Source: a virus (taxonomy: Duplodnaviria; Caudoviricetes). From it: DNA of 64,000 nucleotides. Under the pieces are notes generated by a model. It searched no databases. It was not told where the DNA came from and was given only the letters and a program-made list of their open reading frames with translations. The translations under genes and the position numbers were made by a program. Below, in pieces: positions 1-5,864 of this stretch. The stretch covers positions 1 through 64,000 of the IMG/VR virus record IMGVR_UViG_3300010352_000284. One strand, given 5' to 3'. Every line of letters starts with the position of its first letter. Position 1 is the stretch's first letter.

Positions 1-148
1 TGGGTCTTCTAGACCCATCTGCCCCGAGTTCCGGGGTGAGTAACGCTGGTGGAGATGAGAGGTTACAGTTTCTTTTGAAACAGTGCTCGTCGATGAATCC
101 AGAAGTCTGTAGTGGTCCATTGAAAAATACGACTACGAATGATTGAAC
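1..148 (+). mobile_element. tnpB: 3' end and right end of an IS200/IS605-family (tnpB) element, truncated by the window edge
   Basis: The frame is open from base 3 to TGA 144-146 and reads ...SNAGGDERLQFLLKQCSSMNPEV..., like TnpB C-terminal tails (xACGE...SxKQE). The DNA ACGCTGGTGGAGAT...TCGATGAATCCAGAA parallels the typical tnpB 3' signature ACGCCTGTGGAGA...TCGATGAAGCAGGAA. A subterminal hairpin GTAGT(109-113)/ACTAC(132-136) is present. The exact right end is uncertain by a few nt. Confidence 0.7.
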
Positions 149-168
149 TGATAAAGAATACAAAGCTG
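20..168 (+). ncRNA. Putative TnpB omegaRNA scaffold plus flank-derived guide (~149-168)
   Basis: Nested pairings seen directly: CTGG(46-49)/CCAG(99-102), GATGAG(54-59)/CTCGTC(86-91) with internal loop TGGA/GATGAAT, GTTTC(68-72)/GAAAC(77-81), GCCCCG/CGGGGT(21-37). RNA boundaries are inferred. Confidence 0.6.
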
Positions 169-710
169 AATATAATATTAAAAATAATGACCGTCTTAAA
201 AAACAAAAGAAGGAAAGATATAATAAAATAAAAAATACTCCTGAATATAAAGATAAACAAAAACAATATGCAGAAAATAATAAAGAATATACAAATTTTT
301 ATCATAAATTTCGAAGAGAGACAGATGAACACTATAGGATTGTAACAATTCTTCGTGGTAGTTTATTAAAGTTTCTGAAAGGTTCGAAAATAAAACATGC
401 TAAAGAATACGGTATTGATTATGAGGCTATAATAAAGCACATTGGGGGAGCACCTAAAGATGGATTAAAATATGATGTTGACCACATTATTCCTTGTGAT
501 GCTTTTGATTTTACCAATGAAGAGCATATTAAGCTTTGTTATCATCCTACAAATCTTAGGTGGTTTGAGCATAAGAAAAATTGTGCTAAAGGCGGCAAAA
601 TCATTCCAAAGTTAATAAATCATTTCAATCTTAGTTGGATTTGTGATAAGATAAAATTGGATTTGACCAAGCATGTAGAAATGGATGTTTATTTTGAGGA
701 GTTTAAGTAA
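147..710 (+). pseudogene. HNH endonuclease lacking its 5' end and start codon (interrupted by the tnpB element); not in the ORF track
   Basis: Manual translation from 147: TDKEYKAEY...EYGIDYEAIIKHIGGAPKDGLKYDVDHIIPCDAFDFTNEEHIKLCYHPTNLRWFEHKKNCAKGGKII...EEFK*. Clearly paralogous to the C-terminal part of 4719..5864. No in-frame ATG until the last few codons. Confidence 0.85.
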
Positions 711-764
711 TAGATTTTATGGTAAAGAAAATATCAATAAATAATTTTAGTAGGAGAATATGAT

Positions 765-1016
765 ATGCAGACGGTATATATTAAATCTGATGAGATGCCA
801 GATTTAGGATTTATTTTCAAAAGGAGAGTAAATTCGGGTGCTAATATGCTTTGTAAGAATAAGACATATGTAGACAAGCCATATACAATGATAATGAGTG
901 ATAATCGTATTTTTATTCTATCGTCATCTGGGAAAATAATAATGGAGATACCAAGAGGTGAATACACTTCTGATAATATAGACATGGTATATTTTTCAGA
1001 TATCGAAACGACATGA
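765..1016 (+). CDS. Hypothetical protein (83 aa)
   Basis: ORF preceded by AGGAG; no recognised motif. Confidence 0.7.
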   Translation: MQTVYIKSDEMPDLGFIFKRRVNSGANMLCKNKTYVDKPYTMIMSDNRIFILSSSGKIIMEIPRGEYTSDNIDMVYFSDIETT

Positions 1017-1019
1017 AAA

Positions 1020-1901
1020 ATGAGAAATATTATGTCTTCGGAAACGGCTTGGATTCTTTTTCTAGCGTCGTCGGAATTAGATGCTGAGCAGAGATTTATT
1101 AAAGATTTAGCATATGGTGTATTTTGTTTAGAAGCCGCAGGAATATCGCATTCGAATATTTTCATTTATATAGATGGGCAAGATAGAAACGTAATACGGC
1201 AAATTATTTCAACAGGAACTAATAATTTATATAATATCAAAATAACAGATGAATTTTTTATTGATATGAAATCTATAACACATAAGAATGTTGTAATGTT
1301 TGTTACGGGTCATGGTAATTTGAAAGGTATTGATGCTTCACCAGAAATATCACCAACAAAACTCGTTAATAGTTTGAAGACCTCACCAAATTTTGAATGT
1401 GGAATAATTTATCTTGGACAATGTTACGCTGGTGTATTTAACTACATAAATGTTAAAACTGAAGAACCAAAATCCGATATTATAATGGTTGGAGCGACAA
1501 ATTTACATAGTAGTATTAGTTCTCCTACACAAAAAAGTATGTTAAACAGTGTACGAATTCCTTGGGTAGCTAATTTATTTTTGTTGAATATATTTGAATG
1601 GTTTGGTTCACCACATGATTTGGATGGAGATGGGTATAATAGTATTGTTGATTCTTATAAATATGCTGGCGGAATGACTCACAAATACATAAATGAAATT
1701 AAAGGGGATTGTCATCAAAGACTCAAGAGAATAGAACAGACAATAGATTCTCTTGAGATTGTTTCAAATGATACTACACTCACAGTTGCCAAAGAAATAA
1801 TTGAGACGAAAAAAGAAAAAGAATTAATGTTGCAGATATTATACAATCATCAAGAAAGTTGGATATTAAATGCAATTCCAGGACAGAACATAATCATATA
1901 A
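1020..1901 (+). CDS. Clan CD cysteine peptidase, C13 (legumain/GPI8)-like
   Basis: N-terminal WILFLASS..RF..DL..G...GI..SNI; His-Gly in MFVTGHG; catalytic Cys in IYLGQCYAG; DLDGDGYNS Ca-binding-like motif. Confidence 0.75.
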   Translation: MRNIMSSETAWILFLASSELDAEQRFIKDLAYGVFCLEAAGISHSNIFIYIDGQDRNVIRQIISTGTNNLYNIKITDEFFIDMKSITHKNVVMFVTGHGNLKGIDASPEISPTKLVNSLKTSPNFECGIIYLGQCYAGVFNYINVKTEEPKSDIIMVGATNLHSSISSPTQKSMLNSVRIPWVANLFLLNIFEWFGSPHDLDGDGYNSIVDSYKYAGGMTHKYINEIKGDCHQRLKRIEQTIDSLEIVSNDTTLTVAKEIIETKKEKELMLQILYNHQESWILNAIPGQNIII

Positions 1902-1944
1902 AATAAACAACACTCCAGGAATAATATCTTGGAGTTTTCTTTTA

Positions 1945-1950
1945 TAAATA
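1945..1950 (+). promoter_or_regulatory. T4-type late promoter (TATAAATA 1943-1950) 5 nt before ATG 1956
   Basis: TATAAATA-ACTAT-ATG; another TATAAATA at 1897-1904. Confidence 0.65.
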
Positions 1951-1955
1951 ACTAT

Positions 1956-2270
1956 ATGTATGACGAAAAGGCAGACAGATATATTCCCACGCAATCTGAG
2001 CGGAGAGCGTTTGGTCGGGTTTCTAATAATTACAATCCATCTTCGAACAAAGTACATAGAGAGTTATTGAAGCAGTTATATAATATTTCCAACCATCTTT
2101 CTGAGCGTTCTAGGAAGTTATTTTACGATATTATTTGGGATTGCTATGCTGAGAAATATTCTGTTCCATCTGTTTGTTATTCTTATGTTTTATCTAGATT
2201 GAGTGACAAGTTTTACCCATCTGAGATTGAGTTGATTCGGAAAAAGATAGAAGAGTTGAAGAATAAATAA
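1956..2270 (+). CDS. Hypothetical protein (start revised to ATG 1956)
   Basis: ORF track 1929..2270; the internal ATG follows a late-promoter motif. Confidence 0.65.
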   Translation: MYDEKADRYIPTQSERRAFGRVSNNYNPSSNKVHRELLKQLYNISNHLSERSRKLFYDIIWDCYAEKYSVPSVCYSYVLSRLSDKFYPSEIELIRKKIEELKNK

Positions 2271-2290
2271 AAGAAAACGAAAGGTTACAT

Positions 2291-2710
2291 ATGTTGTATG
2301 AGAGTCGGTGGATAGAGCCTCTTGAGTTCCGGAATGCGATGACTGGAGAGGTGAAGGTTGTGGTGTATGGAGGAGTGATAGAGCTTCCTGAATCTGTTGG
2401 TCGTTTGTATCCTAATTATCTAAAGCAAGTTTCCATGACATTGCCGGAAGAGGTTGTGATAGAGGACATTCAGAGTGAGATTGTGAAAGATTTCAACGGC
2501 ACTTCTGAGAGGCAAATTCAGAAAGAGGATGAGATTGGGAAATTGATTCTTGACGGTGAGGAAAAGAAGACTGAGAAGGTGAAGAAAGCTGGACGACCTA
2601 GAGTTTGGGGAAAAGATGTTCCGAACGCTGACAAGAGATTTTATCAACGGAAGGCAAAGAAGGAGAGAGAGCAGAAGTTCAAGGATTTGGGAATGGGAGA
2701 TGCTGAGTGA
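2291..2710 (+). CDS. Hypothetical protein (139 aa)
   Basis: GAAAGG SD before ATG; basic C-terminus. Confidence 0.7.
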   Translation: MLYESRWIEPLEFRNAMTGEVKVVVYGGVIELPESVGRLYPNYLKQVSMTLPEEVVIEDIQSEIVKDFNGTSERQIQKEDEIGKLILDGEEKKTEKVKKAGRPRVWGKDVPNADKRFYQRKAKKEREQKFKDLGMGDAE

Positions 2711-3903
2711 GTCTAAAGAAATTCGTGAACAAGGAAGATAATTATTCTATAAGACTGATGAATGGTGATTGCCTTGAGAAATTGAAAGAACTGGAAGACA
2801 ACAGCATAGATTCAATAGTTACAGATCCTCCATATGGTTTGAGTTTTATGGGAAAGAAATGGGATTATGATGTTCCGAGTGTTGAAATTTGGAAGGAGTG
2901 TTTTCGTGTCTTGAAGCCAGGAGGACATCTTTTAGCATTTGCCGGAACGAGGACACAACATCGAATGGCCGTCAAGATAGAAGACGCTGGATTTGAAATT
3001 CGAGACATGATTGCTTGGGTTTATGGAAGTGGTTGGCCTAAGTCAATGGATGTTTCAAAAGCAATTGACAAGCATTTTGGCGCAGAGAGAACAGAAGGTG
3101 AAAGAGTTTGGCAAGGTGGTAAACGATCTGGTGGCATCATTAAAGATGATGAAACTAAAACAACCTCTGAACGAACCATTTTTGACACTCCAGCAACAGA
3201 AGAAGCAAAACAATGGAGTGGATGGGGAACCGCGCTAAAGCCAAGCATGGAACCAATCACTGTTGCAAGGAAACCATTGGAAGAAGGCACTGTTGCTCAG
3301 AATGTTTTGAAATTTGGCACAGGAGGATTGAATATAGATGAATGTCGCGTTTCGTTAAATGGAGAAACCCCATACTCATATCCAAATGGACGTGGTGGCA
3401 CAGGATGTTTCAAAAAAAAGAGCCTCGAATCAAATTTAGAAACACCAATTCAAGGAAATGAAAATGGCAGATTTCCGGCAAATTTAATTCATGATGGTTC
3501 TGAAGAAGTGGTTGAATTATTTCCAAATACCGGCAAATCAGGAATCGCAGTTCAAAGAAATGGTGGAGGCCAGAAACTTGGAGGCAATGGAATATGTGGC
3601 GGCTCTAAAGGATTGATTCGAGATGATGTTGGATATTCTGATGCTGGCTCTGCGTCTCGTTTCTTTTATTGCGCCAAAGCTTCCCAAAAAGACAGAGAAG
3701 AAGGAAACAATCATCCAACAGTCAAACCAACAGACCTAATGAAATATCTTTGCCGCCTTGTCACTCCTAAAAATGGAACAGTGCTCGATCCTTTCATGGG
3801 TTCTGGGTCAACAGGAAAAGCAGCAATTTCTGAAGGGTTTGGATTTGTTGGAATAGAAAGAGACGAAGCCTATTTCAAAATCGCCCAGAATAGAATCGGA
3901 TAA
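2707..3903 (+). CDS. Site-specific DNA methyltransferase (N6-A/N4-C, beta class)
   Basis: IVTDPPY catalytic motif near the N-terminus; HPTVKP and VLDPFMGSGSTG SAM-binding motif at the C-terminus. Confidence 0.92.
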   Translation: MSLKKFVNKEDNYSIRLMNGDCLEKLKELEDNSIDSIVTDPPYGLSFMGKKWDYDVPSVEIWKECFRVLKPGGHLLAFAGTRTQHRMAVKIEDAGFEIRDMIAWVYGSGWPKSMDVSKAIDKHFGAERTEGERVWQGGKRSGGIIKDDETKTTSERTIFDTPATEEAKQWSGWGTALKPSMEPITVARKPLEEGTVAQNVLKFGTGGLNIDECRVSLNGETPYSYPNGRGGTGCFKKKSLESNLETPIQGNENGRFPANLIHDGSEEVVELFPNTGKSGIAVQRNGGGQKLGGNGICGGSKGLIRDDVGYSDAGSASRFFYCAKASQKDREEGNNHPTVKPTDLMKYLCRLVTPKNGTVLDPFMGSGSTGKAAISEGFGFVGIERDEAYFKIAQNRIG

Positions 3904-4718: not shown

Positions 4719-5864
4719 ATGTGCAAGCATGAATTATATTCAGTAATAAATGGAAAAAAGATTTGCTATACTTGTTTAATTGAAAAAGATACTTCGGAAT
4801 TTAATAAAAGAAAAACAACTAAAGGATTCTCTTATAGAAGTGAGTGTTCTGATTGTGAGAAGAAAATGCTTAATACGAAATACGAAACTGATAAATTAAA
4901 ACCAACATACGTCGAAACAGATTTAAACAAACAAAAAACTTGTATTAAATGTGGCGAAGTTAAAAATATTTCTGAATTTTCGTTAGCTAATAAAAAGACT
5001 GGAAGTTATTATAATTCTTGTAAATGTTGTAGAGCAAAAGAATCTAGTATATATTCTAAAAATAGGCGTATACGAAAATCTAAAGAAGAAAAAATAAAAA
5101 TAGAATATAAACAATGTAATACGTGTGGTCAGATAAAAAGTATAATAGAATTTAATAAAAATACATGTTCGAATGATGGTTTTAAAAATATCTGTGTTTG
5201 TTGTGAGAAGGCATATCGTTCAAACTATAATATATTAAATAAAGAAAGAAAACAAAAATATAATGATGAATATAAAGTTAAAAACAAAGATATTATAAAA
5301 CAAAAACAAAAACTTCGACGTGATACGGAAGAACACAAAATGTACCAAAAAGAATATCGCAAGAAAAATAAAGAACGATTAAGAGAACAACATAGAGAGT
5401 ATGAAAGAAATAATAAACAACGATTATCTGAACAACGAAGAAAAAATGAAAAACGTAGATTAGAAGAAAATAAGCAATACAAATTATACAAAACTATAAA
5501 ATGTAATTTATTTTACGCTTTTAGGAATTATTCTAAAAACGGCAAAATAAATTCCTGTTCCGAATATGGTATTGATTTTTCGGCAATATACAACAAAATT
5601 GGCCCTCGTCCTCATAAAGATTTTCAACTTGACCACATTATCCCTGTTCGTGCTTTTAATTTCGATGACCCTGAACATGTAAGATTGTCCCACATTCCTG
5701 AAAATCTTCGTTGGATACATAAAGACGAGAATAATGCTAAGAAAGACAAAATCATTTGGTCTCTTATTTCTTCGTCTCCAGAGTTACTTTCCGTTGCTAA
5801 TAGTCTCCATCTTTCTGAATATCATGATAATATGAATGCTGCCGATATTTTTAATTATCTTTGA
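4719..5864 (+). CDS. Free-standing HNH homing endonuclease with three Zn-ribbon repeats
   Basis: Three CxxC..K...EF...CxxC repeats, a charged helical linker, and DHIIP...ENLRW.....N.AK HNH motif; low GC; lies between gp13 and gp14. Confidence 0.88.
   Translation: MCKHELYSVINGKKICYTCLIEKDTSEFNKRKTTKGFSYRSECSDCEKKMLNTKYETDKLKPTYVETDLNKQKTCIKCGEVKNISEFSLANKKTGSYYNSCKCCRAKESSIYSKNRRIRKSKEEKIKIEYKQCNTCGQIKSIIEFNKNTCSNDGFKNICVCCEKAYRSNYNILNKERKQKYNDEYKVKNKDIIKQKQKLRRDTEEHKMYQKEYRKKNKERLREQHREYERNNKQRLSEQRRKNEKRRLEENKQYKLYKTIKCNLFYAFRNYSKNGKINSCSEYGIDFSAIYNKIGPRPHKDFQLDHIIPVRAFNFDDPEHVRLSHIPENLRWIHKDENNAKKDKIIWSLISSSPELLSVANSLHLSEYHDNMNAADIFNYL

Follow-up and report, generated by a model that had tools for sequence, protein, structure and literature searches.

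Genes and features at the locus

The analyzed window covers 64 kb from the start of a linear IMG/VR phage contig, which is 80,442 bp long and has an estimated completeness of 36%. Its first base is also the first base of the contig, and the record begins inside a TnpB element (Table 1). The GC content is 0.52 over positions 1-100 versus 0.17-0.34 across the following 600 nt, in agreement with the GC-rich first segment that an earlier note on this DNA had described. Frame 3 is open from position 3 to a TGA codon at 144-146, and the same frame is open again from 147 to a TAA codon at 708-710, with no ATG, GTG, or TTG before about position 656. The start-less HNH frame that was reported to continue directly after the TGA is therefore present as described. 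On the whole, the observation behind the earlier note is confirmed, while its interpretation is partly supported.

Table 1. Coordinates of features in the window and flanks adjoining the right end (RE) of element copies
Feature	Location	Strand	Remark
RE, last 150 nt of tnpB-only element of ~1.37 kb	1..150	+	terminus ...GAATGATTGAACTG at 137-150
Last 47 codons of tnpB plus TGA (144-146)	3..146	+	46/47 identical to L089 TnpB C terminus
Predicted omegaRNA helix 1, GCCCCG / loop AGTTC / CGGGGT	21..37 (pairs 21-26/32-37)	+	4/6 pairs change on both sides
Conserved core of predicted omegaRNA	46..102	+	outer stem 46-49/99-102 (CTGG/CCAG)
Core inner stem, GATGAG/CUCGUC	54-59/86-91	+	invariant, but part of the search pattern
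Core variable apical hairpin	about 62-85	+	
Predicted guide (ATAAAGAATACAAAGC)	151..166	+	first bases past the shared RE; start 149 if terminal TG is target derived
3' fragment of endonuclease-VII/HNH-like gene, last 186 codons	151..710	+	start-less; stop 708-710
Intact paralog, 381 aa, without insertion	4719..5864	+	among baseplate genes
Flank after RE: ATAAAG	window		
Flank after RE: GTAGAT	L009/L104		
Flank after RE: GTAACA	L017/L089		
Flanks after RE: TTCTGG and TTCAGA	L026 (two copies)		
Flank after RE: TTTGTG	L101		
Flank after RE: AAGAGA	L136		

A multicopy tnpB-only element

When the 47-aa tail was compared by phmmer with 1.8 billion representatives, the sole relevant match was a protein (P0001) that is 96% identical, extends 9 residues further at its N terminus (LKYFGMYIL), and is encoded right where a JGI contig of 35.7 kb (L009) begins; a second candidate (P0002) was set aside as a repeat-protein chance match. 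In addition, we built a search pattern from the core motif of the predicted RNA and ran it on IMG/VR, metagenome contigs, and reference prokaryote genomes. In one IMG/VR match (L005), the motif closes a 441-aa TnpB ORF with CxxC...CxxC and HDRDVNAAKNL, and the tail of that protein, INACGDERLQFLIEQCSSMKQE, is close to the tail in the window, SNAGGDERLQFLLKQCSSMNPE. Among metagenome contigs, the element occurs at 89-99% identity in L009/L104, L017/L089, L026 (two copies), L077, and L101, and the same scan recovered three more distant subfamilies. Specifically, positions 1-150 of the window are 95-99% identical to the RE of L009, L017, L026, L077, L089, L101, and L104. Other matches to the core pattern (L003, L004, L006, and a 64-nt human-gut group) were rejected as chance occurrences in GC-rich or coding sequence.

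Two full copies, L089:5898-7268 and L026:948-2318, have 1371 nt in common at 89% identity but unrelated flanks, which defines the complete element. It holds a single 429-aa ORF (L089:5975-7264) and no transposase gene; neither a Y1 (HUH) TnpA nor a resolvase is encoded within the 1371 bp. The ORF matches the Pfam models HTH_OrfB_IS605, OrfB_IS605, and Cas12f1-like_TNB above their cut-offs, scores 289 bits on NCBIfam NF040570 (cut-off 100), and scores higher with the IS200-type model (299 bits) than with the IS607-type model (237 bits). It aligns over its whole length with ISDra2 TnpB (8bf8/8exa/8h1j; E 1e-56), its VDLG, ..IES.., and HDRD motifs line up with the corresponding ISDra2 motifs, and the HTH/REC, RuvC (D-E-D), and zinc-finger domains are present. 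The window itself carries only the 47 tnpB codons that follow RuvC-III; the start of this tail, GLLDPS, aligns with residues 377-382 of the 408 in ISDra2 TnpB, where the alignment stops. That the tail is TnpB-like, as had been read from the letters, is borne out by its near identity to the C terminus of this full-length protein. Positions 1-150 are the right end of a nonautonomous tnpB-only insertion sequence with an ISDra2-like nuclease of the IS200/IS605 type, and this phage's own copy is presumably full length. A tnpB-only insertion sequence carried in a phage is of a kind already known.

The element was recovered only from phage and metagenome contigs. There was no blastn match to positions 1-170 among 50,697 phage records, and the core motif was not found beyond chance in 185,579 reference prokaryote genomes, where all 14 genome_contigs matches to the pattern fell in GC-rich or coding sequence and were discarded. 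An IMG/VR scan with the L089 TnpB returned only L118 and one 55%-identical relative (L137). Y1 tnpA (PF01797) was absent from the 80-kb and 94-kb phage contigs G000 and G001 (174 kb) in a search with positive control genomes, and a Y1 TnpA is possibly supplied in trans. Subterminal DNA hairpins were not detected at the left end (LE) or RE, which fold no better than shuffled sequences (z +1.6, +1.2, -0.2, and +0.4), and the element ends carry imperfect terminal inverted repeats of ~11 nt (GTTCAATCATT).

Activated sludge, wastewater, and sediment harbor a group of T4-like phages in which the element is multicopy. The RE ends in ...GAATGATTGAACTG in all copies, with a 2-nt variant in L136, and the shared ...GAACTG is followed by at least seven different flanks in contigs (Table 1). 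Furthermore, Logan contigs from four runs show additional flanks as loose ends at 150/151, the depth of Logan contigs over positions 1-180 is 4-15 times that of the flanks, and at least six assemblies have contig breaks within the element. The many flanks, the excess depth, and the internal breaks together indicate a multicopy repeat in these phage populations.

Several additional observations concern the copies. At least eight independent contigs start or stop inside the element (the window, L009, L017, L104, L026, L101, L118, and L136), and most of these ends lie 148-179 nt away from its right end. In this phage group, assemblies break systematically at the element. On a 4-kb contig, two inverted copies (L026:948-2318, plus strand, and L026:3891-4038, minus strand) have right ends that face each other across ~1.6 kb. 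L009:5854-7720 is a separate IS607-type unit, comprising a 190-aa resolvase and a 436-aa TnpB with an unrelated C-terminal tail. A related subfamily, whose RE ends in ..AAGTTTTGAAGAGCGG, has at least five flanks, and its copies at L024:9389-9600 (minus strand), L053:6593-6804, and L064:579-789 consist of an omegaRNA-like module without tnpB upstream, which may be miniature or decayed derivatives. Finally, the RE closes with ATGATTGAACTG (window 139-150). In L089:7257-8069 the terminal ATG opens a 270-aa ORF that crosses from the element into flanking DNA; in the window, this ATG lies in frame 1, gives only 30 codons, and does not share the frame of the HNH remnant; the RE variant of L136 has no such ATG.

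An interrupted endonuclease gene

Comparison with intact alleles places the element directly after ...GAT TGT G (codon 241) of an endonuclease-VII/HNH-like gene. The 427-aa product of one such allele (P0003, contig L013) matches the window fragment over residues 242-427 at 70% amino acid identity, and the match is almost perfect beside the junction. L013 is a syntenic close relative, with L013:1544-2315 corresponding to window 1918-2689 at 98%. An allele closer than that of L013 lies in L136, where positions 429-991 match window 149-711 at 94.5% nucleotide identity, rising to 97% downstream. Here the gene is uninterrupted at the site, with GTAGATTGTG joined directly to ATAAAGAATACAAAGCTGAATATAATATTA, identical to window 151-180 (30 nt) and with TTGTG directly upstream. 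Empty-site alleles, which the earlier note had anticipated in related genomes, thus exist in L136, with a perfect match to positions 151-180, and in L013, with one mismatch to the guide region at its position 15. In sediment runs X3 and X5, the empty allele was found alongside copies of the element and showed a loose end, ATTTGGAAGATGTGGAAGATGTATAGATTG, before base 149.

Intact alleles of the interrupted gene, like the paralog at 4719-5864, belong to phrog_1035 ("endonuclease VII"; E 6e-27 for P0003 and 2.5e-27 for the paralog), and a beta-beta-alpha-Me motif (DHIIP...NLRW...N.AKG) can be read from the sequence. Paralogy between the fragment and 4719-5864 had been proposed before and holds at 35% identity over residues 179-351 of the paralog (E 4e-24). 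Pfam returned no match; the 185-aa window fragment alone had no PHROG match; tblastn of the fragment against phages gave only distant matches of 29-31%; and there were no relatives of the HNH gene in IMG/VR. The free-standing position of the gene and its patchy distribution suggest a putative free-standing homing endonuclease. The remnant at 151-710 is probably untranslated.

The region after the endonuclease gene looks like a variable "moron" slot. Window 712-1917 contains two ORFs, 765-1016 (83 aa) and 1020-1901 (293 aa), without Pfam or PHROG matches, and both are missing from the close relatives L013 and L136. In these relatives, the HNH stop is followed within ~42 nt by sequence equal to window 1918 onward, and in L136 a different ORF of 143 aa overlaps the spot after the stop.

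The same gene carries a second insertion, after codon 120. The left junction in L089/L118 follows codons 1-120 and reads ..GAATGTG/TTTAATC, while L136 starts inside the element RE and reads ..GAACTG/AAGAGAC, with the gene continuing from codon 121 on. L013 is empty at this site (GAATGTG/AAGAGGC). Aligned with one another, these contigs describe a clean simple insertion after TGT-G, as at the site in the window. Three left-side sequences were available, namely, ATGTG (L089/L118), TTGTG (L026), and TTGTG again, each read with a 2-nt TG ambiguity, and the empty sites in L013 and L136 are preceded by TTGTG or ATGTG. From these sequences, (T/A)TGTG is a candidate target-adjacent motif (TAM); alternatively, a 2-bp TG may lie on both sides of the element. 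Because only two of the ~8 flanks belong to this gene family, no specific preference for HNH genes is established, and the Cys-rich zinc-ribbon region offers many TGTG sites.

A putative omegaRNA and its guide

The core that had been noticed in the window, CTGG-TGGA-GATGAG...CTCGTC-GATGAAT-CCAG, is present at 46-102. We aligned 11 sequences from four subfamilies and found three helices, which RNAalifold also predicted independently, with 7 of 16 pairs changed on both sides. Paired cells amounted to 96%, versus 33-53% when the partners were slid. In the outer stem, three of the four pairs covary, with the variants CTTG/CAAG, CTTC/GAAG, and CCT/AGG; the CCTG/CAGG form that the earlier note took to be commonly seen occurs in none of the recovered relatives. 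The same note had called the segment highly structured. Folding energy alone does not bear this out, as positions 1-170 have a minimum free energy of -46.4 kcal/mol (z -1.43), a stability reached by 17 of 200 shuffled sequences, but covariation in the relatives does. A search against RNA-family profiles, which had been put forward as a check, gave no Rfam match in window 1-3000 or in a full copy of the element (L089:5800-7400), where only noise appeared at E<=10. A group I intron or a tRNA was considered first for the GC-rich segment and dropped.

The predicted structured RNA overlaps the 3' end of tnpB and ends at the RE boundary, position 150. The guide that had been proposed is correct to within 2 nt, since the flank begins at 151, or at 149 should the terminal TG be part of the target. 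It matches an uninterrupted HNH allele perfectly. Within the window, the guide has no self-targets beyond chance.

Alternative explanations

The strongest competing account is that the right junction is genuine but that the left flank in this phage is not the 5' half of the HNH gene, with the gene deleted or rearranged. The L089 copy has HNH codons 1-120 on its left and unrelated non-HNH DNA on its right, where L136 shows the true right partner. Flanks from different genes imply that element copies have recombined, and hence the HNH 5' half need not adjoin the upstream side of the window here. There is also no HNH N terminus elsewhere in the 80-kb contig, and the breaks inside the element in multiple assemblies are in line with such a context. 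Yet, the insertion after codon 120 is clean and simple when L089/L118 and L136 are set against the empty L013, and there is no sign that the site in the window differs from it. We regard a recombinant left flank as improbable, though a real contender. Of the earlier description of an element nested inside an HNH gene, the right junction stands; the left side lies outside this record, and "nested" would be an overstatement if the left flank were recombinant. Under a simple insertion, the left junction in this phage would read ...GTAGATTGTG joined to TTYAATCATTTC.

A less plausible account is that the window preserves a dead remnant, either a solo right end or a copy with an inactivated tnpB, that has neither nuclease nor guide function. 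The tnpB-less copies of the related subfamily (L024, L053, and L064) provide a precedent, and the contig starts inside the element, so that this copy could be truncated. Nevertheless, tnpB is present in every copy of the same subfamily with enough upstream DNA (L089, L026, L101, L077, and L118), the tail in the window differs from the intact ORF at a single one of its 47 residues, and a 125-nt contig from X1 spans window 1-97 and continues past base 1. We consider this account rather unlikely.

Two other accounts can be dismissed. The suggestion that the element is an IStron, in which a group I intron splices out and restores the HNH frame, is very improbable given that no intron or other Rfam family was found in L089:5800-7400 at E<=10, the tnpB ATG lies only ~77 nt from the left end, and the RE reads through to the TGA in the HNH frame. 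Equally remote is an assembly chimera at 150/151. A contig end is 150 nt away and a repeat adjoins the junction, but contigs of 8.5 kb in X1, probably the source sample, and of 741 nt in X2, from another sample and study, span it with no mismatch, and the flank begins exactly at the TGTG site of the intact alleles.

Relation to characterized systems

The IS1341 group, the tnpB-only members of IS200/IS605 in the ISfinder grouping, may be close kin of the phage element. By description, the two are alike in having a single tnpB ORF, a length of about 1.3-1.4 kb, and multiple copies. IS1341-group elements are described in bacterial chromosomes, whereas the phage element spreads within T4-like phage genomes.

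The phage element shares with the ISDra2 OMEGA system of Deinococcus radiodurans (8exa, 8h1j) the full-length TnpB homology with aligned RuvC and zinc-finger motifs, a predicted structured RNA over the tnpB 3' end that stops at the RE, and a flank that differs per copy, as guide logic would have it. Both may also share a short T-rich 5' motif. In ISDra2 the motif 5' of the insertion site is TTGAT (PMC13565253); the candidate motif of the phage element is TTGTG, ending in G. Unlike ISDra2, the phage element has no tnpA inside or nearby and no detectable LE or RE hairpins, bears terminal inverted repeats, and is confined to phage and metagenome contigs. The features that define IS200/IS605, a Y1 TnpA and subterminal hairpins without inverted repeats, were not found in it. 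It differs from IS607 in having no serine-recombinase TnpA and no Rfam match of the RAGATH-18 type, in its lower TnpB score with IS607_TnpB than with IS200_TnpB, and in its T-rich candidate 5' motif, where a G-rich TAM would be expected (PMC13565253).

IStrons such as CdISt1, which combine IS607 or IS605 with a group I intron (PMC10690162), likewise carry tnpB with an omegaRNA at the 3' end and sit inside a protein-coding gene. The phage element has no intron, and its host gene is therefore not rescued. The interrupted gene, in turn, resembles the free-standing HNH/EndoVII homing endonucleases of T-even phages in being a free-standing beta-beta-alpha-Me nuclease with a paralog among baseplate genes. 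A review put forward "transposon non-restorative homing" and theoretical homing by TnpB between co-infecting phages (PMC13565253). The present case departs from that proposal in that an RNA-guided element lies inside a protein-guided one, and natural alleles of the same site include both occupied and empty ones. Finally, cyanophage A-1(L) is another tailed phage with tnpB, in a copy that is identical to IS copies of its host (bioRxiv 10.64898/2026.02.14.705889); in contrast, no counterpart of the phage element described here was found in reference genomes, and the element occupies many insertion sites within a phage lineage.

Possible RNA-guided homing between phages

Our preferred explanation, in which we have considerable confidence, is that the right end of a TnpB element interrupts an EndoVII/HNH-like gene and that the element would act by RNA-guided homing. 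By analogy with characterized TnpB systems (PMC13565253, PMC10055086, PMC10690162), processing of a transcript over the 3' end of tnpB would yield an omegaRNA, with window ~1-150 and some upstream sequence as the scaffold and the next ~16 nt (151-166) as the guide. Loaded TnpB would cut co-resident DNA that contains an uninterrupted (T/A)TGTG followed by ATAAAGAATACAAAGC, and repair by recombination with the occupied genome would copy the element in. In co-infections, the element would then act like a homing endonuclease with an RNA guide, moving between phages.

A broader proposal, which we advance tentatively and would not favor as a whole, is that a tnpB-only element without a transposase persists and spreads in T4-like phages mainly by such homing, with interconversion of alleles at two TGTG sites and reshuffling by recombination. 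If homing occurs, the two alleles would convert each other, since each phage's guide perfectly matches the empty site of the other. Furthermore, recombination between copies would reshuffle segments of the phage genomes, as the chimeric flanks of L089 suggest.

It is established that IS200/IS605 elements are retained in bacterial chromosomes and plasmids through the homing nuclease activity of TnpB. For co-infecting phages, such activity has so far been proposed only in theory (PMC13565253). The locus offers a concrete natural test case for possible homing of this kind. It brings together phages that are 94-98% identical around the site, two defined sites at which the element is present in some phages and absent from others, perfect guide-target matches, a candidate TAM, and no transposase that could be found. 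On a practical level, the multicopy repeat explains broken phage assemblies, with consequences for binning and estimates of completeness. More generally, the victim of the insertion is itself a putative homing endonuclease gene, and the locus thus illustrates how selfish elements may be layered upon one another in phage genomes.
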